64,000 nucleotides of DNA from Solirubrobacterales bacterium (lineage in GTDB: Bacteria; Actinomycetota; Thermoleophilia; Solirubrobacterales; 70-9). The stretch spans positions 796 to 64,795 of the forward strand of contig DASZSJ010000016.1 of NCBI GenBank assembly GCA_035548675.1, given 5' to 3'. Within the stretch, counting starts at the first letter, position 1, and each line of letters starts with the position of its first letter. Position numbers and translations under genes: made by a program. The notes below the pieces were generated by a model, which did no database searches, was not told where the DNA came from, and was given only the letters and a program-made list of their open reading frames with translations. Below, piece after piece: positions 53,264 through 63,927 of the stretch.

Positions 53264-53362
53264 CTGAAAGGCTGACGAGCCGCCGCTTCAGGAGTGGGAT
53301 TGCGGCGGTTATGCGACCGGGATGCGACTCGTCCGGCGCGGTCGTTTCGACCGAAGGTCAAG
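53264..53362 (+). repeat. family R repeat, copy 1 (long form)
   Basis: ctgaaaggctgacgag...ggagtgggattgcggcggttATGCGACcgggATGCGACtcgtccggcgcggtcgtttcGACCGAAGGTCAAG. It ends 3 nt before the HepT stop codon. Confidence 0.75.
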
Positions 53363-53365
53363 GGC

Positions 53366-53836
53366 TTAGTCGCCGGTTGAATCGCCTTCGGAATGGGCCA
53401 GTTGTTCGACGGTGGACCCGAACTCGCGTAGATCGTCGAGGTGCGCCAGTGAGGCAAACACCGCGCGATCGTCGATCTCTAGATACAGGTGCACTATGAG
53501 ATTGCGCTGTTTGGCCGCCTCCGCTAGTCGCTGTGCAAGTTGAGCTGGAATGACGCCGCCCTGCCCGAGGGTCGTGAAAACGTCGGCATAGTCGGATGGA
53601 GGCTGCGCCGATTGCTCGCTGACGAGCTGGGTGCCGAGGTCGATGCAGATCTGGACCGCCACCTGTAGCCAGCGCTCGGCTGCGGCACGCTGCTGCTCGT
53701 CGGCGAGATAGGCGTCCTCCCCGGCCCGACGCACCTCGTCGAGACGCTCGATCAGCCCCTCGAGCCGCTGTATCCGGGCTTCAACCCGGTTCGCGTCGAC
53801 CAAAGCGCCCTTCCCGTATCCGGCGACGCACACCAC
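53366..53836 (-). CDS. hepT: HepT-like HEPN (DUF86) RNase toxin
   Basis: RX4H motif RNLIVH and DUF86-like helices (RWLQVAVQICIDLGTQL). The start is uncertain: GTG at 53836 or TTG at 53806. It overlaps mntA. Confidence 0.75.
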   Translation of the reverse strand: MVCVAGYGKGALVDANRVEARIQRLEGLIERLDEVRRAGEDAYLADEQQRAAAERWLQVAVQICIDLGTQLVSEQSAQPPSDYADVFTTLGQGGVIPAQLAQRLAEAAKQRNLIVHLYLEIDDRAVFASLAHLDDLREFGSTVEQLAHSEGDSTGD

Positions 53837-54251
53837 GACCCAACTCTTCGCGCAGCGGCACCGTGTCGAGGTAATCCAAGATCGCTCGCGTCTCCAACCG
53901 GACCCGTTCGTCGTGATCCCGCTCGACCAGGCGCTTGGCGTCGCGGATGGCGCGATGGCACATCAGCGGTGGCGCGTGATTGAGCAAGACAATGTCGATC
54001 TCGTCGGTGCCCAGTGCCCGCCCGGCCTCACACGCGATCTTCAATTGAAGATCGAGGCGACCACGGGGATCGAGGGCGGGGTCATGCCAGACGGCGATGT
54101 CAACGTCCGACAGTGGGCCGACGGTCCCACGGGCCTGCGATCCGATCAGCATCGCGGCAACGACGTTGTCTTGGTCCAGAGCGTGACTGAGCCGCTTCAA
54201 AGCAGCATCGTCGATCGGCGGAACTCGCGATTTCTCGTTGATGACGACCAT
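53781..54251 (-). CDS. mntA: MntA-like nucleotidyltransferase antitoxin
   Basis: Minimal nucleotidyltransferase motif GSQARG...SDVDIAV. It lies upstream of hepT and overlaps it. Confidence 0.8.
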   Translation of the reverse strand: MVVINEKSRVPPIDDAALKRLSHALDQDNVVAAMLIGSQARGTVGPLSDVDIAVWHDPALDPRGRLDLQLKIACEAGRALGTDEIDIVLLNHAPPLMCHRAIRDAKRLVERDHDERVRLETRAILDYLDTVPLREELGRGVRRRIREGRFGRREPG

Positions 54252-54312
54252 TGCCTACATCGTCCCCGATCACCCGGACCGAGTCCAATCTGATCGGACG
54301 TACGATCCGCCG

Positions 54313-54456
54313 ATGAACGTGCGGAGCATGCGCCCCGATGAAGTCGACGCCGCGGTCAGCGTGTGGCGCGAAGCCAACAACGCCCGTGGTGCGCCGCACG
54401 GGCCTGAGCGCACAGCTCGCATCCGCGTGAAACTCTCAGCCCCGGACGCACTGCCC
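54313..54456 (+). pseudogene. GNAT acetyltransferase N-terminal fragment (48 codons)
   Basis: MNVRSMRPDEVDAAVSVWREANNARGAPHGPERTARIRVKLSAPDALP matches the first 48 aa of the GNAT gene at 56706. About 15 nt of upstream sequence are shared too. Homology stops abruptly. Confidence 0.8.
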
Positions 54457-54522
54457 GGAACGCCTCGGCGCGCCTCGGCACCACGTTTCAAGAGGAACCG
54501 CCGCAAACGGCTCTGCACCGGG

Positions 54523-54590
54523 CTGAAGGTGGGCCGCTTGGGGAGTGGGGTTGCGAGGGTGATGCGACCGAAATGCGACCACCAGCAACT
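54523..54590 (+). repeat. family R repeat, copy 2 (short form)
   Basis: ctgaaggtgggccgcttggggagtggggttgcgagggtgATGCGACCgaaATGCGACCaccagcaact. The Fic stop codon follows at 54599. Confidence 0.75.
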
Positions 54591-54598
54591 GATTGGCG

Positions 54599-55777
54599 CT
54601 ACGACGAAATGATCTGCACCACCTCAGGCGCTACATAGAGGCGAGCATTTCGAGAAAGCCGCGCGTGCGCTGGTTCCAAAATATTCAGTGACACGAGGGT
54701 GTTGATCGCATTCTGGGCGCCCTGACCCGACAAGCCAAGGCGCTTGGCAACCCAGGGCCGATCGACGTAAGGACGACCAACTAGATCGGCGGCCAGTCGC
54801 TCGGCAGAGCCTCGCTTGTTCGCATCTTGCACTCGACGGCGCAACTGCTCCTGCAGGGCGACCAGGCCCTCGACTTTCTGCTGAGAGTCAAGGGCTGATG
54901 CAGCAACACCCTCAGCAAAGAAGCTGACCCACCGATCCCAGTCCCCATTGCAGCTGAGGCGCATGAGTTCCTCTTGATAGAGGTCGCGGCGTTTCTCAAA
55001 CCACGGAGAGACCACGAGGAGCGGCTCTCGGATGACCGCACCGCGCAGCAGCTGAACGATCACCAGTAGGCGGCCGAGCCTCCCGTTCCCGTCGGAGTAG
55101 GGATGGAGCGACTCAAACTGATAGTGACCAAGCGCCGCAAGGACGACTGTCGGCAGTTCAGGAGGCGAAGCGATCCATGCGAGCAACTCCTCGACGCCAC
55201 CGCGCAACTGGTCGCCCGGGGGCGGGGGCACGAATCGCGCCTCATCAAACCCGGCGCCACGAGCGCCGATGACAACGATTCGGTCGCGGAGCCCTCCGGC
55301 ATCGGATAGCTCGCCGGCGGTGTCGCGAACGAGTGTCTTCTGCAAATCACCCAACATGCCGATTGTGAGTGCGCGATCTTCAGGCCAAGAGAAGGCAAGC
55401 TCAGCCATCCGCTCAAAGTTGAGGACCTCAACCAGCTCAGCGGAGAGCTGCTGCCGATCGTCGCCCTCCGCCGCGAGAACGTCGGCGAATGGAGCGTATG
55501 TCCCCTCCAGCGCGCTCGTACTCTGCGCCTCACGGCGCAGGGTGGGTCGACGAAGGAGCGAGGGCTCGGGAATACGCCGTGCCGCGCCGTCGAGTCGAGC
55601 CAGCGCTGCGGTCGCCGAGTTAACGACGTTCCAGGTCTTCGTTGAGAGCACGATCTCTCGGGGCAACGGATCGGGCAGGAAAGCTTCGCCCTCGACCATC
55701 TCGTGAGTAACTGGATCCGGTCCAAGAATGGGAATTAGGCTGCCGATGGGGCTCTGCTCAAGAGTGGCCGTATCCAC
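54599..55777 (-). CDS. Fic/DOC family protein with an N-terminal inhibitory motif and a C-terminal wHTH-like region
   Basis: Fic motif HPYSDGNGRLGR and inhibitory-helix-like STSALEG. GTG start. Confidence 0.85.
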   Translation of the reverse strand: MDTATLEQSPIGSLIPILGPDPVTHEMVEGEAFLPDPLPREIVLSTKTWNVVNSATAALARLDGAARRIPEPSLLRRPTLRREAQSTSALEGTYAPFADVLAAEGDDRQQLSAELVEVLNFERMAELAFSWPEDRALTIGMLGDLQKTLVRDTAGELSDAGGLRDRIVVIGARGAGFDEARFVPPPPGDQLRGGVEELLAWIASPPELPTVVLAALGHYQFESLHPYSDGNGRLGRLLVIVQLLRGAVIREPLLVVSPWFEKRRDLYQEELMRLSCNGDWDRWVSFFAEGVAASALDSQQKVEGLVALQEQLRRRVQDANKRGSAERLAADLVGRPYVDRPWVAKRLGLSGQGAQNAINTLVSLNILEPAHARLSRNARLYVAPEVVQIISS

Positions 55778-55809
55778 AGACGCAAATATATCGCCTAAAA
55801 TTTGCGTCT
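55778..55809. promoter_or_regulatory. perfect 10-bp inverted repeat abutting the Fic start codon
   Basis: agacgcaaat, then a 12-nt AT-rich loop, then atttgcgtct. It begins 1 nt upstream of the GTG. It could be an operator, or the terminator of the upstream nucleotidyltransferase gene. Confidence 0.45.
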
Positions 55810-55917
55810 AGCTATGGACAACGCAAGTTGTCTTGTGCCCACAGAAGAATTCCCTGGAAATGAGCCGGTAACGAGCGAGCGAGGGCCAGTAGATCGCCGG
55901 GTAGATCCGGCTTTCGC

Positions 55918-56259
55918 TCATCCGGCAAGGACGCGGCCCTGCGATAGGGCTGCGTGGACGAGGCCGCCGCGGACTTCCCGCCAACGATCGGCATAGTCGC
56001 GACTTACCACGACCACATCTGCCGGCATACGCAAATCGCGCAGGGTCCGGTGCAGTCGCACCGACTCCTCGGCCTCATTGGCGACCTCGGGCTCAACGAC
56101 AAGGAAATCGACATCGCTATGTGGGTGGGCCTCTCCGCGGGCATGGGAGCCAAAAAGAACCACCTGCGCATTGGGGGCAGCAGCAGCCAAGCGGCGTCCC
56201 GCCTCGGCAATCAGCGCATCGTCAATGGCTCTCATCGTCGGAATGGTAGTCGTCGCCAT
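55918..56259 (-). CDS. minimal nucleotidyltransferase (MNT-type), no cognate HEPN ORF evident
   Basis: GSHARGEAHPHSDVDFLVV. It is clearly paralogous (about 70% aa identity by eye) to 59654..60001. Confidence 0.75.
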   Translation of the reverse strand: MATTTIPTMRAIDDALIAEAGRRLAAAAPNAQVVLFGSHARGEAHPHSDVDFLVVEPEVANEAEESVRLHRTLRDLRMPADVVVVSRDYADRWREVRGGLVHAALSQGRVLAG

Positions 56260-56355
56260 GGATCGAGCCCGGCACCACTCTGGTTGTCATCCCGGAGCTC
56301 CGATGCCACTCGACCTCATTCCACAATGAGAGTTCTTGTCTGCGACGATTGACCC

Positions 56356-56706
56356 GTGCTGAAGCTCGTATCGCTCAAGAACACATGCACCGCGTGTCCA
56401 TCCCAGTGGGAGGGAACCCTTGAGGACGGCCGGGCAATCTATGCGCGCTATCGCCACGGCGAACTGAGCGTGGGCGTCGGCAATGACATCAACGAGGCGG
56501 TCCGAAACGGAATGTCCGATCGAGCTCTTTATGCGAACGACACAGGCAACGGACTCGATGGATTCATGGACTTCCAGGAACTGAAGGCCCAGATGCATGG
56601 GCTACTGGAGTTCCCTGCAGATCTAGACGAGCACGATCGTCGACCGAAACTGCGATCCCGAAATGCCGAGAAAGCTGCTCGCGCTGCCCGACGTACGATT
56701 CGTTGA
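56356..56706 (+). CDS. hypothetical protein (116 aa)
   Basis: GTG start. The stop overlaps the GNAT start as TGATG. It contains CTACPSQWEG. I recognise no family. Confidence 0.5.
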   Translation: MLKLVSLKNTCTACPSQWEGTLEDGRAIYARYRHGELSVGVGNDINEAVRNGMSDRALYANDTGNGLDGFMDFQELKAQMHGLLEFPADLDEHDRRPKLRSRNAEKAARAARRTIR

Positions 56707-57326
56707 TGAACGTGCGCGCCATGCACCCCGGTGAGATCGACGCTGCGGTCAGCGTGTGGCGCGAGGCCAACGTCGCCCGTGGCGCTCCGCATGGGCCTGC
56801 GCGTACCGAGCGAATCCGCGCGAAACTCTCAGCCCCAGACGCACTGCCGTGCGTCGCGTTGCGCCCAGACATCGTAGGCATGGCGCTCGCCGAGCCCGGG
56901 AGGCTCGATGACGGCGCAGGAGACCTCGATCCAACACTCCTGCACATCTCGATGGTTTTCGTTCGTCCCGCTGCACAGCGCACAGGAGTCGGGCTCCCTC
57001 TTGTCATGTACGTCCTCGACGTCGCACGGTCGAGCGGTTACAGACGAGTGCGAGTTTGGACGACGCAGGAGAACCGCGCGGCTCGCAAGCTCTACGAGAG
57101 AGCTGGGATGACCCCCACTGGCAAAACCACTCCCCTCCGGTCGAGCGTGGCTCTCCAGTACGAATGCCCGGTAGAAGAATCACGGCGCCAAGACCTCGGT
57201 GTCGATGACGTTGCTGACCTTTGGGCCGAGATCACGCCGGCATCTGAAGACGAGAGTCTCGAGCTCGCCGGGGACGAGCTCCGTGCGATGCGCAAGGAGA
57301 AACACACCAAGGAGGGTCAAAGCTAA
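56706..57326 (+). CDS. GNAT family N-acetyltransferase with an acidic C-terminal extension
   Basis: Acetyl-CoA-binding motif A-like VFVRPAAQRTGVGLPL and ENRAARKLYERAGM. Confidence 0.8.
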   Translation: MNVRAMHPGEIDAAVSVWREANVARGAPHGPARTERIRAKLSAPDALPCVALRPDIVGMALAEPGRLDDGAGDLDPTLLHISMVFVRPAAQRTGVGLPLVMYVLDVARSSGYRRVRVWTTQENRAARKLYERAGMTPTGKTTPLRSSVALQYECPVEESRRQDLGVDDVADLWAEITPASEDESLELAGDELRAMRKEKHTKEGQS

Positions 57327-57328
57327 TC

Positions 57329-57547
57329 GTGCGAAGGCCTCTGCGACGCGTCTTCCTTCTACTTGGCACCTATGTGGCTCTCTTGGCGGCCGTCGTCTTC
57401 GCGGGCTTCCTGGGAAGCGCAATTGGTATTTGGGCCGCGATCCTCTGGGGCGTCGGAGTCATCAGCGGGCTCGTCATCTATGGACGCCGACGCCTGAATC
57501 GATCCCGGAGTCAAATCGCTCTAGAAGGCCAGCCTCCATCGGATTGA
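57329..57547 (+). CDS. small membrane protein (72 aa, 2 TM segments)
   Basis: GTG start 2 nt after the GNAT stop. It has hydrophobic segments. Its stop lies inside family R copy 3. Confidence 0.5.
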   Translation: MRRPLRRVFLLLGTYVALLAAVVFAGFLGSAIGIWAAILWGVGVISGLVIYGRRRLNRSRSQIALEGQPPSD

Positions 57548-57617
57548 AAGGACGGAGGTCTTCCGTACGGAGAGTGGCTTTGCCGAGGTGATGCGACCGA
57601 AATGCGACCGGCAACTC
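57543..57617 (+). repeat. family R repeat, copy 3 (short form)
   Basis: attgaaaggacggaggtcttccgtacggagagtggctttgccgaggtgATGCGACCgaaATGCGACCggcaact. The VapC stop codon is at 57616. Confidence 0.75.
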
Positions 57618-57993
57618 AGGGCACGCGGATGTCGACGAGATCTTCAATCAACTTGAAGTCGTCGGCGTTCAGGGTCAGCAGGGGCACGCCGTGAACATTC
57701 GCGGTCGCGGCAATCGCCAGGTCGAAGGCGCGGCGCCGGGGCTGGCCGCCACGCTGCGCCACGGCTGCATAAAGGCGACCGCATTCGCGCGCCGCCGCCG
57801 CCTCGAAGGGCAGAGGGTCGAAGCTCTCCTCGATTGTGCCGAGCCGGCGCAGGCGTACAGCCCGGACCTCCTCATCCGCCGCGACCAAGACACCGAAGTG
57901 AAGCTCGGTGAGCGAGACGACGCTGATCGCGACATCCTCATCGGGATCCTCGCTGCCGCGTATGAGGACCGACGTGTCAAGCAGGGCCGGCAC
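57616..57993 (-). CDS. vapC: PIN-domain toxin VapC
   Basis: MPALLDTSVLI..., with conserved acidic residues and downstream-of-antitoxin gene order. Confidence 0.85.
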   Translation of the reverse strand: MPALLDTSVLIRGSEDPDEDVAISVVSLTELHFGVLVAADEEVRAVRLRRLGTIEESFDPLPFEAAAARECGRLYAAVAQRGGQPRRRAFDLAIAATANVHGVPLLTLNADDFKLIEDLVDIRVP

Positions 57994-58000
57994 CGAGCCG

Positions 58001-58246
58001 TTACAGCGCCCAGGGGTCGCGAAGTTCGCCGCCTACCTTCTCGAGGTCGGCCTCGAGGGTCGGGTCGACGGGCGCCCTCCAGAGCTCAGCGAGCTGTGAG
58101 CTCGGCACCCAGCGCCGGCCCTTGGCAGGCCCCAGGGAAGCGACTGGCCGTCCAGAAACAGTGATCGTCAGCTCCTCGCCCGCTTCGGCGCGACGCAGCA
58201 CCTCGCCAACGTTGTTGCGCAGTTCCTTCTGGGGAATCGTCGCCAC
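58001..58246 (-). CDS. Phd/YefM-type antitoxin
   Basis: MATIPQKELRNNVGEVLRRAEAGEELTITVSGRPVA. It lies immediately upstream of vapC. Confidence 0.8.
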   Translation of the reverse strand: MATIPQKELRNNVGEVLRRAEAGEELTITVSGRPVASLGPAKGRRWVPSSQLAELWRAPVDPTLEADLEKVGGELRDPWAL

Positions 58247-58306
58247 AGTCCCACGGTAGCAGTTCTGCTACCTGCGAGGGTCTTCGGTTCTGCTGGAAGC
58301 CGTTGA

Positions 58307-58825
58307 CTACTTTTCGACCCCGCAGAGCTCGAGGTCATCGCGCTTCGCCATCCACTGAGCGGTCCGATCGGACATGGCCGCTTTGAGGGAAAGGAGTTTT
58401 GCCGTTGCGACATTACCTTTTTCCATTTCCTTGGCCGTCTCTTTGATCAGCCCCAGCGTTTCCTCGTCTTTTTCCAGCACGGCTTCAATTGCATGGGAAT
58501 CTCCGCTAGGAGGCTCGAGTTCCCGCAGTTCCCGAATCCCCTGTTCGGACTTAGGAAGAACCTTGCGAAGGATGGCAGCGAATTCCGCGACTTCCTCAGG
58601 ATCGTCAAGCCCCGATTCATTTAGTCGATCCAGCTTTTTATTCCAGGCGGCGACATCTTCGTCTTCATCCGCTGCCTGACAGATTTCATCAGCCCGAGCG
58701 ATCCATTCGGACTTGCTCAGATCCCCACTCGCTGACGTAGATCCGGTCGAATTAGAGGAACCCTCTCCGCAGCCTGCCAGAAGAGCAAGCCCCGCCAACA
58801 ACGCCATCAGACACGCTCTCCGCAT
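58307..58825 (-). CDS. lipoprotein of unknown function
   Basis: Internal ATG giving MRRACLMALLAGLALLAGCGEG (lipobox LAGC). Lower GC than the core genome. Confidence 0.6.
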   Translation of the reverse strand: MRRACLMALLAGLALLAGCGEGSSNSTGSTSASGDLSKSEWIARADEICQAADEDEDVAAWNKKLDRLNESGLDDPEEVAEFAAILRKVLPKSEQGIRELRELEPPSGDSHAIEAVLEKDEETLGLIKETAKEMEKGNVATAKLLSLKAAMSDRTAQWMAKRDDLELCGVEK

Positions 58826-58938
58826 CGTCTCCCCTACTCGTTCAGGGCCGAAGCCTACAGATGCACCCTTCCCATCCCGAGGCCACTTGACGTTCCATGC
58901 CTGAAACACCGCCGCTCTACCAAGCCACTATTGATCGT

Positions 58939-59040
58939 ATTGAAAGGCCGAGGGGCGTCTGCATGGCGAGCGGACTAGCTTCGATTGTGTGACCGAGATG
59001 CGACTTGCCGGTGCGGTCGTTTCTACCGAAGGACAAGCGC
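58939..59040 (+). repeat. family R repeat, copy 4 (long form, first half-site degenerate)
   Basis: attgaaaggccgagggg...gtgtgaccgagATGCGACttgccggtgcggtcgtttctACCGAAGGACAAG. The stop of the 59048..59335 ORF follows at 59048. Confidence 0.7.
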
Positions 59041-59047
59041 TCCAACG

Positions 59048-59335
59048 TTAGACAGCCGCGAGGGCCGGCGCGAGGTCGTCGGCGCTCGCTTTGACCGACT
59101 CCGGAATCGTGATGCGAAGTTCGCCATCGCGATCGAGGATCGCTTGAGCACCCAAAACAGTGAGACCGACGATTCGTTGAGTGCCAGGCTCGAAGCGCAG
59201 GACATGACCCTCGGGCGTCTCCTCGCCCTCCGCCTCTTTGGGCTCGCCGACATGCAAATAGAGCACGTCGTTCTCAGCGTCATAGTCTGCGTGGTCGAAG
59301 GCGACCGGGCCAATTCTGATGTTCACTTGCTCCAT
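59048..59335 (-). CDS. DUF2283-like small protein (putative antitoxin)
   Basis: YDAENDVLYLHVGEP...G.V.GLTVL is a DUF2283-like pattern. Family assignment is from memory and has not been searched. Confidence 0.5.
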   Translation of the reverse strand: MEQVNIRIGPVAFDHADYDAENDVLYLHVGEPKEAEGEETPEGHVLRFEPGTQRIVGLTVLGAQAILDRDGELRITIPESVKASADDLAPALAAV

Positions 59336-59634
59336 GAGCGTGGATCCTTCCGATTACCGAACGCAGAGATGACCCGCGCTGGCTCCTGTTCATAGCTTAC
59401 GACCACCAACAGCCAGCGACTAGGGCCCGCGCCGCGCAGGTAGTGGCGCCTGCGCTGCTCGTAAGCGGGATCCGGCAAGACGCGGTCCGGTTCAGCAACG
59501 GCCCTCAATACGTCAGCGAGATAAGGCGCCAACTCGGGATGACCTCGCAGAATCTTGTCACGCCAGAGATCAGCGGGCACGATCACCCGAACGCCTGCCG
59601 GATCTTTTCCCTCCCCAGCCTCGCCATTCATCAT
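59323..59634 (-). CDS. hypothetical protein, possible DUF4258-like toxin
   Basis: 103 aa. It overlaps the downstream DUF2283-like gene by 13 nt. The start is uncertain and the family assignment tentative. Confidence 0.4.
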   Translation of the reverse strand: MMNGEAGEGKDPAGVRVIVPADLWRDKILRGHPELAPYLADVLRAVAEPDRVLPDPAYEQRRRHYLRGAGPSRWLLVVVSYEQEPARVISAFGNRKDPRSWSK

Positions 59635-59653
59635 CGGAAGTCGCCGCCCGTGT

Positions 59654-60001
59654 TCATCCGGCGAGGACCCGTCCCTGCGAGAGAGCGGCGCGGACGAACC
59701 CCCCAGGCACGTCGCGCCAGCGGTCCACGTAGTCGCAGCTCAGGACTAGAACGCTGGCCGGAACTCGCAGATCGCGCAAGGTGCGATGAAGACGCACCGA
59801 CTCCTCAGCCTCGTTTGCGACTTCGGGCTCTACGACAAGGAAGTCAATATCGCTATAGGGACTTGCCGAGCCGCAGGCGTACGAACCAAACAAAATGATC
59901 TGCGCCTCGGGTGCAGCAATAGCTAGGCGGTGCCCTGCCTCCGTGATCAGGGCCTCATCGACTGTCCGCATGATCGAAATCATAGATACAACCGCAGACA
60001 A
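59654..60001 (-). CDS. minimal nucleotidyltransferase (MNT-type), paralog of 55918..56259
   Basis: GSYACGSASPYSDIDFLVVEPEVANEAEESVRLHRTLRDL. The start is uncertain: TTG at 60001, or an internal ATG. Confidence 0.7.
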   Translation of the reverse strand: MSAVVSMISIMRTVDEALITEAGHRLAIAAPEAQIILFGSYACGSASPYSDIDFLVVEPEVANEAEESVRLHRTLRDLRVPASVLVLSCDYVDRWRDVPGGFVRAALSQGRVLAG

Positions 60002-60560
60002 CTCGTATCATTCCTCCATGGCTCACGAGCAGCTCATAACAACGCCGCGAGGGCATCCAGCCGCGCGTAGTGCTGCCGTCACGACGCCGCACCTCGCCGC
60101 CCTCATTGTCGACGGCACAGTACGGCCGAGCGAAGGACCTCGGTACCTACCCCAGCCGACGAGCCTCGGGGGCGCCGGCAAAAGCGCGGCGGACTACATA
60201 AGCGATGGGCGTCGCTGAGGCCCTACATCCCTTGCGCCGAGAGCACGCGCCTCGGGCTCGTCATATCACCCGACAAACCCCGTAAATGGCGATGGAGCAT
60301 GGCGGGGTAAGCGGTGCATCCCGCGCTAACAAATCGAGCCTCCGGTCGACCAGTTGAACGCGGCCCTATCTATTCAAGGCCTGGGACGCAACCTGCCTGG
60401 CCGAAGCTTTTCTCGCAAAATGGGGGACTTCAGGCGTATCTTGATAGGTCTTGGCACTCTTCCAAAAGAGTGCCAGCTATGGTGCAAATGCTTCTGGCAG
60501 GGGAAAGCAAGGCCGCCATTGGGTTGAGCGGCCGGACAAATTCCGACAAGGAGGCATCGA

Positions 60561-60719
60561 ATGGCAAAGGTGGGTCCGTATCACTCCAAGGCCCCCAACG
60601 ACCGCAAGGTCTACCACGATCACAACAATTGCACCGAGGGCAACAACATCGAGACGTACAACAAAGTCTCGGGCACAGGCGGATACCCTCGCTGCGATCA
60701 CTGCCAGCGCCTCGGCTAG
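60561..60719 (+). CDS. small Cys/His-containing protein (52 aa)
   Basis: Not in the ORF track. A strong SD (aaggagg) lies 7 nt upstream of the ATG. My translation: MAKVGPYHSKAPNDRKVYHDHNNCTEGNNIETYNKVSGTGGYPRCDHCQRLG. Confidence 0.55.
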   Translation: MAKVGPYHSKAPNDRKVYHDHNNCTEGNNIETYNKVSGTGGYPRCDHCQRLG

Positions 60720-60796: not shown

Positions 60797-60832
60797 GTCG
60801 ACTACGCAGGGGCTTTCCCCTGCGTAGTCGAC
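60797..60832. terminator. perfect 16-bp-stem hairpin between the small Cys gene and the 537-aa gene
   Basis: gtcgactacgcagggg, then cttt, then cccctgcgtagtcgac. No U-tract follows. Confidence 0.5.
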
Positions 60833-60928: not shown

Positions 60929-62542
60929 TTGCCACAAAAACCGCGACAGCAACGAATTACTCTTTTCCTGCTGAAGGAGGGTATCGACGACGAGGAAATC
61001 TGGATTCAAACCAGTATTGCCGAACAAACCCAGGTGGCGGCAGGGGGACTGAAGGGCACACTTTCCGTCGGCCACAATAAAAGCTCAACCCCAAAATGGT
61101 CGAAGTACTTGCGAGACCATGTGACAGGCACTCGGCTTGCGGACCTTCGGAACCGCTCAACAGCGGCTGCGCTCCTCTTTGAAACATCTGAACGCCAGTT
61201 TGTCGCCTGCTTTGGCTACGGACGCTCAATGATCAATCTAGAGCTTTGCGAGCCAGACTTTGGACTCAAGGTCGTCGTGAATTCAATCAAACCGAACCGC
61301 CTGAAGAGCATTGACGCGCGGGGCTTTGAGGAGATCACCCGTAATACAAAGCGTGATGTCAGTCGCGAGTCGGCGCTAAGCGCTTTCGAGATCGACGTTG
61401 AGCGAGATGTTGTTCGGTCGCTAACCGGAGCACCCGAGGATGAGGAACTCGCAAAGCGACTTAGCGGCGCTGACGCTCTGGGTCTCAACACTAAACGCCA
61501 GTTGCCAGAACTATCGAAACTGTGTGATGAGCTACTCAATGCCTACAAGTCGACCCGCTATCGAGAGCGGGGGTTTGGGTTTATCGATCACCTGCGACGT
61601 GTAACCAATAAGGGCGAGAAGGCCGAACTCGACGATGCTCTGGTTCAAGCCCTAAATGAGGGCGGCGACGCGCTAGACGATCTGCACTTGGCGATTCCAG
61701 AGGCTATCGACTGGCTGGCCGTGGATGGAATTCGCCTAAGTGGAGAACGCAAAGGAAACAAATTGCATGCTGACCCCTCTGTAAGCGCTTATCTGCGCCT
61801 ACGCGCAGATAAAGAGATTGATCTACCTAGGCTCAAGCGCGATCAAGTCTTGGCTATGGGCGCTGAGACCGAGGCGCCGATTGGGCACTGGTCAATCTAC
61901 CGATGCATCGTCTACCAGACCCGACGTAACGGCCGCCTCTACGTTCTTAGCGCAGGTGATTGGTTTTGGGTGGCCGAGAGCTACGTACAAAAAGTGACCG
62001 ATTACGTTGCGCAGCTACCCGAACTTGAGATCGATCTGCCGGACTGTGCTCCCAACTCACGCGAGGATGCCTATAACCTCGCAGCTGCTGAGGCAACTGG
62101 GTGCCTCTGCCTTGATGGGAAATTTGTAACTGAATCGGTCCCCGATAACGTCGAGGTATGTGACTTGCTCAGCCCGGATCGAAAGCTGATCCATGTTAAG
62201 AAGCGTGGATCTTCCTCAACCCTTAGTCACCTCTTCAACCAAGGGGTTAATTCGGCCGAATGGCTACGTGAGGATCCTGCGTTCAGAACCGAGGCTCGGG
62301 AGATGGCGAGTGAGATCAATCCACAGATTGCCGAAGCACTGCCTTCCGGTGAATTCGAGCCGAGTGACTACGAGGTTGCATTCGTCGTTATCACTAGAAG
62401 TGAACGTGACTCTCCATTGACATTGCCTTTCTTTAGCTTGGTCAGCTTGCGTAATGCAGCTCGTACACTTCGACATCAAGGCTATCGGGTGACTGTAAAG
62501 GCCGTGAAAGAGCCGCGAGAGACTGGCAAAGAAACGGAATAA
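60929..62542 (+). CDS. 537-aa protein resembling the TIGR04141/DUF6119 sporadically distributed family; possible PD-(D/E)xK-like nuclease
   Basis: TTG start with aagga 8 nt upstream. GC is markedly lower than its surroundings. The C-terminal motif is DLLSPDRKLIHVKKRGSSSTLSHLFNQG. Family assignment is from memory and has not been searched. Confidence 0.6.
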   Translation: MPQKPRQQRITLFLLKEGIDDEEIWIQTSIAEQTQVAAGGLKGTLSVGHNKSSTPKWSKYLRDHVTGTRLADLRNRSTAAALLFETSERQFVACFGYGRSMINLELCEPDFGLKVVVNSIKPNRLKSIDARGFEEITRNTKRDVSRESALSAFEIDVERDVVRSLTGAPEDEELAKRLSGADALGLNTKRQLPELSKLCDELLNAYKSTRYRERGFGFIDHLRRVTNKGEKAELDDALVQALNEGGDALDDLHLAIPEAIDWLAVDGIRLSGERKGNKLHADPSVSAYLRLRADKEIDLPRLKRDQVLAMGAETEAPIGHWSIYRCIVYQTRRNGRLYVLSAGDWFWVAESYVQKVTDYVAQLPELEIDLPDCAPNSREDAYNLAAAEATGCLCLDGKFVTESVPDNVEVCDLLSPDRKLIHVKKRGSSSTLSHLFNQGVNSAEWLREDPAFRTEAREMASEINPQIAEALPSGEFEPSDYEVAFVVITRSERDSPLTLPFFSLVSLRNAARTLRHQGYRVTVKAVKEPRETGKETE

Positions 62543-62583
62543 GCCATCGATTTGGAGTTAGCGGGTTTGCGTGTTGAATCTAT

Positions 62584-63675
62584 TTACCCAATTGCACCTT
62601 TTACCTTCCCGAAGCTCTCCCTCGTTGGATGCGTATAGCGAGCCAGCATTGTCTCGACGCGGTGGCCGGCGATCTCGGCCAGGTCGGCGTCGTTGATGCC
62701 GGCGGCGCGGAGGTGGGTGACGTAGGAGTGGCGGCACTCGTGGGGGCGGATGTCTAGGCCGGAGGCCTTCTGGGTGGGGTGCCAGAGGTCCCGGTAGAAG
62801 TTGCGCTCGCGCCACATGCGGCCGGTGGGGGTCGTGAAGAGGAGATCGCAGTCCTCGGCATTGAGCTGGATCTGGGCTTCGATCATCCAGGCGAGGGTCG
62901 CCGGGACAGGAACGGTCCTCCCCGCGTCGTGCTCGCCGTGGTCGGTCTTGGTGCCGTCGAGGATCACGCCCTCGTGGGCGGTCCTTCTGACCTTCAACGT
63001 CTCTCCGTCGAAGTCCTCACGCTTCAGCGGGAGCACCTCCCCCAGCCTCATGCCGGTATCGGTGAAGACGCGGACCATTGCCTCGTAGCGACCGGCCGCC
63101 TTGGCGAAGGTGTGCATCTGCTCGAAGCTGAAGACGCGGATCGGTCGGCGCTTCTTCTTTGCCCTCGGGTCGTTGGATCTGACTCGAACGCCCTTGAAGG
63201 GGTTGAGGTCGGCCACTTCGTCGGTGATCGCGTCCTCGGCCATTGCCGATAGAGCGCGGAGGATGCCGACGACGCCGGTTGTGGCTCTGCCCTGGACTCG
63301 CAGCATGTGGTCAACCAGGGCGAGGGCGTGGCGTCGGCGCAGCTCGCGCATGGGCCACTGCTTGAGTGGGACGCCCTCTACCTCGACCTCGAGTACGCGG
63401 CTGATCCGATGCTCGTTGGTCTCGTTGGTGCGATCCGAGCGCGGGTGATGGGTCGGCCAGGTGGCGAAGTACTCACCCAGGGTGTCGGGGCGGTCTGAGA
63501 GCCCGTAGGCCTCGTCTATCGCTTGCTGGGCTTCGCGCTTGAGCTTGAAGGTCCCCTTCCCACGATTCCAGCGGGGCTTGGCGATTCGGTGTTTGCCGTC
63601 GCTGCCGGTGTATCTGGCGACCCAGACGATCTCGCCGGAGGGGTTGCGACGTTTGACCGGCGACTCTCGCCTCAC
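62584..63675 (-). CDS. int: tyrosine-type site-specific integrase
   Basis: Catalytic residues in context: TGMRLGEV (R), HECRHSY (HxxR) and LARYTH (Y). The GTG start overlaps the xis stop as GTGA. Confidence 0.85.
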   Translation of the reverse strand: MRRESPVKRRNPSGEIVWVARYTGSDGKHRIAKPRWNRGKGTFKLKREAQQAIDEAYGLSDRPDTLGEYFATWPTHHPRSDRTNETNEHRISRVLEVEVEGVPLKQWPMRELRRRHALALVDHMLRVQGRATTGVVGILRALSAMAEDAITDEVADLNPFKGVRVRSNDPRAKKKRRPIRVFSFEQMHTFAKAAGRYEAMVRVFTDTGMRLGEVLPLKREDFDGETLKVRRTAHEGVILDGTKTDHGEHDAGRTVPVPATLAWMIEAQIQLNAEDCDLLFTTPTGRMWRERNFYRDLWHPTQKASGLDIRPHECRHSYVTHLRAAGINDADLAEIAGHRVETMLARYTHPTRESFGKVKGAIG

Positions 63676-63863
63676 GAAGCCTCCCTTCGCTGGGCAAGGA
63701 AGGCGTCTACGTCGGCTGGGTCTATCCGTCGGGAAGCTCCGAGCTTGTAGGAGGGCAGGTCTCCCCTCCTGATCCAGTTGCGGATCGTGCGGTCCGAGAC
63801 GGCGAGATAGGCGGCAAGGGTGCGCTCGGTAAAGAAGGTGATCGACCGGGCATTTCTCTCCAT
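63672..63863 (-). CDS. xis: excisionase-family helix-turn-helix DNA-binding protein
   Basis: ATG at 63863 preceded by AGGAGGG. TERTLAAYLAVSDRTIRNWIRRGDLPSYKLG is typical of an excisionase HTH. Confidence 0.75.
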   Translation of the reverse strand: MERNARSITFFTERTLAAYLAVSDRTIRNWIRRGDLPSYKLGASRRIDPADVDAFLAQRREAS

Positions 63864-63913
63864 GCCCTCCTGGTGCCAAAAGGGTCTTCGCTTGATCCAC
63901 TTGTTAGGCAAAA

Positions 63914-63927
63914 GACCGAAGGTCAAG
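63914..63927. repeat. 14-nt motif GACCGAAGGTCAAG, candidate att core
   Basis: Identical to 53349-53362 (end of R copy 1) and 12 of 14 identical to 59024-59037 (end of R copy 4). It lies 51 nt outside the xis start. Confidence 0.4.

Follow-up and report, generated by a model that had tools for sequence, protein, structure and literature searches.

We analyzed a 64,000-nt stretch of contig DASZSJ010000016.1 from a Solirubrobacterales bacterium (hereafter the window), in which a gene of the DUF6119/TIGR04141 family occupies positions 60929..62542 on the + strand. Relatives of this gene are recurrently placed inside or next to known defense systems and mobile genetic elements (MGEs), and we regard the family as a credible candidate for a new defense system, with a predicted fold for which searches of the PDB and BFVD detected no structural relative. 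The explanation we favor, to which we give somewhat better than even chances, is that the product is an autonomous single-polypeptide conflict protein, anti-phage or anti-plasmid, which is carried as island cargo and combines an N-terminal sensor with a C-terminal phosphodiesterase-like core. A sequence search of the public collection revealed that the exact protein is already available from NCBI as HVY77204.1, a ‘DUF6119 family protein’ of a Solirubrobacterales metagenome-assembled genome (MAG). Because the gene is already deposited and its family catalogued, the window gene is an ordinary member of that family and the locus itself is no discovery.

The open reading frame (ORF) is intact, encodes 537 aa and begins with a TTG codon, with an AAGGA Shine-Dalgarno-like motif 6 nt 5′ of this start, and homologs align with the protein from residue 1 at 99% coverage. 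An initial annotation of the window had described the ORF and its strand exactly as we find them, and the peptide motifs that it quoted are present in the protein. It had also singled out the gene for its low GC content, and indeed the gene, at 0.536 (0.552 at third codon positions), is the minimum of the window, as the 1614-nt segment of lowest GC in the entire 64 kb (60991-62604, 0.534) corresponds to it; the window as a whole has a GC content of 0.668, bases 1-50000 have 0.681, and the core lies at about 0.68. The gene is compositionally foreign and horizontally acquired.

The family assignment of the initial annotation proved correct. The protein matches Pfam DUF6119 (PF19614) with an E-value of 1.5e-144 and 483 bits, aligning residues 10-526 with model positions 1-523 of 524, and matches NCBIfam TIGR04141 (‘sporadically distributed protein’) end to end with an E-value of 2.9e-139 and 464.8 bits; both scores are far above the curated cut-offs of 27 and 35 bits, respectively. 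All residues that are invariant in the family (W57, G112, G180, E379, E409, D412, H422, K424, S433, H434 and Q438, from alignments of 56 and 254 members) are present, and since the protein also shares the usual length and single-domain architecture, nothing sets it apart from its relatives. An exhaustive HMMER search retrieved, at E ≤ 1e-3, 4,645 clusters of 50% identity, of which 2,305 also pass E ≤ 1e-30, and among the best 150 of the 4,645 clusters nearly all proteins are ~520-550 aa long, each with one matched stretch and a single domain. Longer proteins of 610-712 aa occur in Streptomyces, Rhizobium AB2/73 and R. ruizarguesonis. At L013, L029, L030, L035, L042, L049, L064 and L068, about 8 of the 83 loci, the frame is broken into two ORFs, which could be pseudogenes or frameshift errors of MAG assembly.

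Members of the family are found in Actinomycetota, Myxococcota, Bacillota, Acidobacteriota, Planctomycetota and Pseudomonadota, including mycobacteria and many alphaproteobacterial plasmids, with the closest hosts among the Thermoleophilia, at 40-50% identity. The GC content of the DUF6119 gene is below that of its flanks in 75 of 78 loci, by a median of 6.2 points. Phage collections contained the family in 1 of 50,697 INPHARED records, and a scan of IMG/VR, which was pattern-limited and would miss divergent homologs, gave no relatives. The patchy distribution proposed at the outset is borne out, as is the statement that the family is functionally uncharacterized: the searchable literature holds incidental mentions of the names DUF6119 and TIGR04141 and no functional study, and the 2025-2026 Pfam and NCBIfam entries carry no function in these names.

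Genomic neighborhoods of DUF6119 genes

All-vs-all clustering of the ORFs within 6 kb of the gene at 83 loci revealed no conserved partner gene, the sole recurrent neighbor being a tyrosine integrase, found at 20 loci. A Pfam census of 146 immediate neighbors in 80 species-level genomes, for which 116 genes from these loci, each at a distance of 7 kb or more, served as a control, likewise placed no family above 6 of 146. Phage_integrase reached this number, followed by SF1/UvrD-type helicase families (3-5 of 146), HTH_3/HTH_31 and DUF3892 (4 each), N6_Mtase and ResIII (3 each), and C5 DNA methylase and NERD (2 each). PADLOC models applied to the immediate neighbors recognized components of type I, II and IIG restriction-modification (R-M) systems, NERD+UvrD, and Mokosh-like helicases. 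In the distal control, by contrast, metabolic families lead (FAA_hydrolase, adh_short, sigma-70), and the integrase, R-M and SF1-helicase families have at most one member each. The neighborhood analysis that the initial annotation had called for finds homologs of the gene recurrently in or near defense systems and MGEs.

Of the annotated plasmid loci, 7 of 11 are linked to type I R-M, as are 4 of 80 genome loci. On plasmids of Mesorhizobium, Mameliella, Paracoccus albus and Actibacterium, DUF6119 is embedded as gene X in the order hsdM-hsdS-X-hsdR-SprT, the stop codons overlapping the start codons. An Aminicenantes MAG likewise has it embedded between the S and R genes. It also lies directly 3′ of SprT (S. 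meliloti pSymB), divergent from an EcoAI-type hsdR (Rhizobium), beside S and M genes (Streptomyces pM92), or just upstream of hsdM or hsdR (three Bacillota). On other plasmids it adjoins Shedu together with an AAA/UvrD pair and DUF3800, or a NACHT protein, or is near TIR/deaminase genes.

Two further features of these relatives were observed. In 5 of 5 alphaproteobacterial type I R-M operons with a DUF6119 gene (L084, L085, L097, L098 and L100), hsdR is immediately followed by a gene for a zinc metalloprotease of the SprT family, which suggests that M-S-(X)-R-SprT is a fixed five-gene unit. On some plasmids, lineage-specific hypothetical genes overlap or abut DUF6119, either upstream (L086:5565-6905, 446 aa; L099:4712-5419, 236 aa) or downstream (L097:7667-8413, 248 aa), and could be local partners.

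According to published work, a gene nested in a type I R-M operon typically serves defense, as exemplified by PrrC (PMC12707154) and TgvAB (PMC11411939), and Payne et al. have put forward phage defense candidates within type I R-M through guilt by embedding (bioRxiv 10.1101/2024.01.29.577857). We therefore read the DUF6119 gene, whose relatives recur in such operons and in defense islands, as a good candidate for a novel type of anti-phage gene. The evidence is the same as for these PADLOC phage defense candidates, namely embedding in type I R-M and location in defense islands, with the difference that no hidden Markov model (HMM) in PADLOC-DB v2.0.0 detects DUF6119; the accessible part of the supplementary text of that preprint does not mention the family. 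The only match, to the PADLOC model PDC-M55A (E-value of 0.024 for the full length and 0.003 for the domain), was confined to 1 of 36 members of the family and taken as chance.

The precedent of PrrC raises the question of whether DUF6119 acts as an accessory or guardian of type I R-M, silenced by or cooperating with the Hsd complex and firing when restriction is inhibited, in which case the window copy would use an R-M system elsewhere or be an orphan. The position of the gene between hsdS and hsdR, overlapping or near-adjacent, in at least two independent lineages (the alphaproteobacterial plasmids and Aminicenantes) is what such a guardian would occupy, PrrC itself is a documented case (PMC12707154), and the tight R-M adjacencies in Rhizobium, S. 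meliloti pSymB and Streptomyces pM92 point the same way. Nevertheless, we consider this role unlikely: type I R-M is absent from the surrounding 6-10 kb in ~76 of the 80 genome loci, in 4 of the 11 on plasmids, and in the window; neither an ABC-ATPase nor an anticodon-nuclease domain is present in the protein, which also lacks a PADLOC Prr/RloC match; and the autonomous systems TgvAB and BrxU also occur embedded. The likeness to the anticodon nucleases PrrC and RloC is that of a single accessory protein inside type I R-M operons, as some DUF6119 homologs are, whereas the family shares no sequence or domain with them, lacks their ABC-ATPase head, and consists mostly of genes that are not R-M-linked, that of the window included. 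Location within a type I R-M operon is seen in some distant homologs and not in the window copy.

Type IV restriction enzymes embedded in defense operons (GmrSD/BrxU/TgvAB and Mrr-like) provide a second comparison, resembling DUF6119 as autonomous genes nested in type I R-M and in the two-part layout that we would infer for DUF6119, with sensing at the N-terminus and catalysis at the C-terminus. DUF6119 differs from them in having no match to DUF262, DUF1524, the His-Me finger or Mrr_cat, and in showing no evidence of modification dependence.

The same physical linkage to hsd genes, together with carriage by MGEs that need to survive host restriction, would also be expected of a restriction modulator, that is, a protein for anti-restriction, alleviation or control instead of an effector. 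We judge this to be the least probable of the readings considered here, as one would hardly expect an operon to carry, between hsdS and hsdR, an inhibitor of itself, the ~530-aa protein with its invariant enzyme-like polar cluster is unlike the DNA-mimic anti-restriction proteins, and DUF6119 is also found beside many defense genes other than R-M. Scarcely more probable is an unrelated, non-conflict enzyme whose genomic associations are incidental to variable regions. This would fit with the lack of significant similarity to any defense protein, nuclease or solved structure, and with a neighbor census that comes without formal statistics, but is at odds with the recurrence of R-M operonic embedding across phyla, the consistent defense neighbors, the contrast between proximal and distal genes, and the sporadic distribution with its GC deficit.

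Predicted C-terminal core and the nuclease question

A full-length AlphaFold2 model built with a 56-sequence alignment had a pLDDT (predicted local distance difference test) score of 84 and a predicted template modeling (pTM) score of 0.79. The C-terminal core domain (residues 362-533; 62012..62527, + strand), when modeled separately, reached a pLDDT of 95.2 and a pTM of 0.91, and its elements follow the order helix, short strands, strand, two helices, strand, helix, strand. Residues that are 95-100% conserved among 254 diverse members cluster mainly in this core, where they make up a putative active-site signature of E379, D396, E409-x-C411-D412, H422-x-K424, S429, S433-H434 and Q438 (62063..62242, + strand). 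In the core model, E379 marks the start of the first helix, E409-x-C411-D412 lies on a short strand and H422-x-K424 on the next strand, after which a Gly/Ser-rich loop leads into a helix bearing S433-H434 and Q438. The signature is kept in R-M-embedded, plasmid and phage homologs of 21-35% overall identity, and judging from the pattern of conservation, this cluster of E, D, H, K and Q residues looks like an active site.

The initial annotation had pointed to a nuclease-like motif in the protein, and two observations bear on this proposal: D412 and H422-V-K424 are invariant or nearly so among the 254 members, and the order of elements in the model is compatible with the alpha-beta-beta-beta-alpha-beta core of PD-(D/E)xK nucleases. 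The likeness to this superfamily, which includes the CdiA-CT EC869-type toxins, SfsA, XPF/Mus81 and NERD, would consist of a similar order of helix, three short strands, helix and strand, with a Glu at the start of the first helix, an Asp on the second strand, an x-K on the third and a Gln on the following helix. DUF6119 departs from it in placing a histidine, H422, at the acidic position of the canonical (D/E)xK, and in giving no significant Foldseek, HMM or hhalign signal. E379, D396 and E409 could stand in for the acid missing at H422.

At the level of the fold the nuclease proposal found no significant support in any comparison. Foldseek searches of the PDB with either the full-length or the core-domain model, and of BFVD with the full-length model, produced no match at E ≤ 1e-3, the best E-values being 9e-3 (full length) and 3.9e-3 (domain), with template modeling (TM) scores of at most 0.36, a value reached for a nuclease by SfsA. 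The weak matches include PD-(D/E)xK proteins (CdiA-CT, XPF, Mus81, SfsA and an arenavirus endonuclease) as well as P-loop NTPases, glutaminase, CD38 and USP folds, and because nucleases are mixed here with other folds, we claim no nuclease fold. Sequence searches of the PDB with the protein, a full-length profile and a C-terminal profile returned nothing meaningful, and when the C-terminal domains of 36 diverse members were scanned against Pfam at E ≤ 10, DUF6119 was the only family to recur. An hhalign comparison of the core with the N-terminal PD-(D/E)xK domains of HsdR, for which the profile was thin (7 sequences), gave a probability of 0.1%, equal to that of the HsdM negative control. Since every formal test was non-significant, we treat a nuclease or phosphodiesterase as the most likely chemistry, tentatively and at something short of an even chance, and not as a finding.

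Two other readings of the motif region, which has the sequence H422-V-K-K-R-G-S429-S-S-T-L-S-H-L-F-N-Q-G439-V-N-S, were rejected. A phospholipase D (PLD/HKD) motif, HxK(x)4D(x)6G(S/T)xN, would require an Asp where the sequence has a Ser, and the G-x-N spacing is wrong; no PLD protein was among the top 50 Foldseek matches. A Walker-A/P-loop reading of ‘KxRGSSST’ was set aside in view of the missing GxxxxGK[ST].

Outside the core, residues 128-162 (61310..61414, + strand) are among the most conserved of the protein, with S127, D129, S145, F153, D156, D160 and R163 standing out in and around them, yet they form the sole internal segment that AlphaFold2 leaves unmodeled (pLDDT below 50). This segment may fold only upon binding of a ligand or partner, or upon oligomerization.

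The integrase-linked island and upstream elements

In the window, the DUF6119 gene converges on a tyrosine integrase gene (62584..63900, − strand; Phage_integrase E-value of 2.6e-17), the two stop codons being separated by 41 nt (62543..62583), as had been noted initially; no terminator-like site was scored in this gap. An HTH_17 excisionase-like gene (63672..63926, − strand; HTH_17 E-value of 4.2e-14) lies upstream of the integrase. The integrases beside DUF6119 in loci L081, L101 and L103 are 75-80% identical to that of the window, the excisionase-like gene is kept in all three, and across the DUF6119-int-xis block as a whole identity is 75-85% while the remaining cargo differs. Among its nearest relatives, DUF6119 thus moves together with int and xis as a unit. 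A convergent integrase immediately downstream is also present in the more distant L094, L054, L017, L075 and L031 and in a Pseudomonas prophage. The window copy belongs to a Thermoleophilia sub-clade that is integrase-linked and, unlike some other members of the family, not R-M-embedded.

Such an arrangement could mean that DUF6119 serves the element itself, either as an accessory of integration, excision or replication or as an addiction or exclusion module that stabilizes the island. The co-inheritance of DUF6119 with int and xis at 75-85% identity amid differing cargo, the recurrence of the convergent layout in distant relatives and in the Pseudomonas prophage, and the abundance of toxin-antitoxin (TA) addiction modules in the island all agree with this idea. 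It is nonetheless quite improbable in our view, given that an integrase is rarely near DUF6119 (6 of 146 immediate neighbors), that a 78%-identical copy in L092 has no adjacent integrase, that embedding in plasmid R-M operons is hard to square with a role in recombination, and that collections of phage genomes contain almost no members of the family.

From ~51 kb on, the GC content of the window falls to 0.59-0.65, from ~0.68-0.72 in the core. Pfam scans of this lower-GC cargo (53366..60001) identified a TA-rich set of genes comprising HepT/MNT, Fic, two solo MNT, GNAT, PIN/Phd, PBECR2/DUF2283 and a lipoprotein-like ORF. A search of the window for the borders of the island turned up neither a tRNA nor a direct repeat flanking it, and the right border is out of view, as the window stops 74 nt past xis.

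A 54-nt direct repeat is present in four copies (53276-53329, 54527-54580, 57556-57609 and 58952-59005; core TGATGCGACCGAAATGCGAC; 0 chance matches expected), which sit in the gaps between TA-type cassettes of the island, none of them adjoining the DUF6119 gene, and which may mark cassette boundaries or serve as an operator. The island also contains segmental duplications: a pair of paralogous genes for MNT-type nucleotidyltransferases share 73% nucleotide identity (55918-56217 vs 59654-59953), and a truncated copy of the GNAT 5′ end is 84% identical to the original (54297-54455 vs 56690-56848). Finally, positions 60072-60233 (+ strand), within ORF 59895-60218, encode 54 aa that are 65% identical by tblastx to L081:3170-3331, beside a Phd/YefM antitoxin gene; this ORF, which has no Pfam match, may be a remnant of shared cargo.

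Closer to the DUF6119 gene, 209 nt upstream of it, is a small ORF, which encodes a 52-aa Cys/His-rich product (60561..60719, + strand), is preceded by the strong Shine-Dalgarno sequence AAGGAGG and falls below the usual size cut-off. In L101, the closest relative, whose DUF6119 protein is 85% identical, 51 of its 52 aa are identical, with the same spacing and a conserved Shine-Dalgarno sequence, and almost all of the ~16 nt changes are synonymous, which indicates that the ORF is strongly constrained at the level of its coding sequence. In three syntenic loci of Sorangium (L053, L056 and L059), remote homologs are encoded no more than 1 kb away from DUF6119. The product matches no Pfam family, apart from a weak similarity to Zn_ribbon_9 (E-value of 0.03), and is possibly accessory or regulatory. 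Between this ORF and the DUF6119 gene lies a perfect 16-bp inverted repeat (60797..60832, + strand) with a predicted RNA folding energy of -34.5 kcal/mol (z of -7.3) and no U-tract after it, which is kept in L101 (471-507) with a compensatory change from C:G to G:C. This repeat could act in termination or attenuation, or as a palindromic operator.

In other Thermoleophilia loci, the place upstream of DUF6119 is instead taken, at a distance of 4-33 nt, by small DUF2188 or DUF3892 genes, so small upstream genes are common but are not one family, belonging instead to at least three unrelated ones (DUF2188, DUF3892 and the 52-aa ORF). No obligate partner gene was identified. The earlier observation that no adjacent gene resembles a partner holds for Pfam-recognizable or family-wide conserved partners, but overlooked the 52-aa ORF with its near-identity in the closest relative.

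A proposed single-protein conflict function

Under the explanation that we favor, the DUF6119 gene would be cargo of an integrase-bearing genomic island whose product acts alone, with no need for a partner gene. The N-terminal ~360 residues, including the conserved unmodeled loop, would sense a cue of infection or of the invader, and the C-terminal alpha/beta core, with E379/D396/E409/D412/H422/K424/Q438 and the strand-loop-helix K424-x-R-G-S-S-S-T, would act as a phosphodiesterase on nucleic acid. Cleavage of nucleic acid might then restrict the invader or abort the infection, and in the sub-clade of the window expression may be under the control of the 52-aa ORF and the hairpin.

Several points weigh against this explanation. 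Fold-level support for a nuclease is nowhere significant, P-loop/Rossmann-like folds are at least as frequent as nucleases among the weak Foldseek matches, and a histidine replaces the canonical (D/E)xK acid in the signature. The neighborhood census had a crude control and no formal statistics, and two of the embedded plasmid cases share one island, so that these cases are not all independent. The window copy adjoins no R-M system and the window contains no Hsd homolog, which means that the R-M association is borrowed from distant relatives of 24-35% identity. The searchable literature holds no experimental datum for any DUF6119 member. Finally, the initial annotation had suggested an anti-phage gene, and the genomic context speaks for it through R-M embedding, defense islands, integrase adjacency and low GC, whereas in PADLOC-DB v2.0.0, PADLOC being one of the resources proposed there for checking it, no system model matched the protein; as a result, ‘defense gene’ stays guilt by association.

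A more far-reaching version, which we put forward as a possibility with the odds against it, is that DUF6119/TIGR04141 is an unrecognized, widespread single-protein immune system with an atypical E/D/E-x-C-D/H-x-K phosphodiesterase, tied to type I R-M as a back-up effector, firing once restriction is blocked, or as a complementary restriction activity, of which the window would hold a mobile, integrase-linked copy with its own small regulatory ORF and hairpin.

It is the family rather than the locus that holds the interest, being large, spread over many phyla and marked by the signatures of immune genes, namely R-M embedding, defense neighbors, integrase linkage, GC deficit and sporadic occurrence. 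The invariant residues E379, D412, H422, K424 and Q438 constitute a ready set of mutants for testing. If validated, DUF6119 would represent a new single-gene defense family with a new fold, and, after PrrC and TgvAB, a further tractable example of the genes nested in type I R-M operons.

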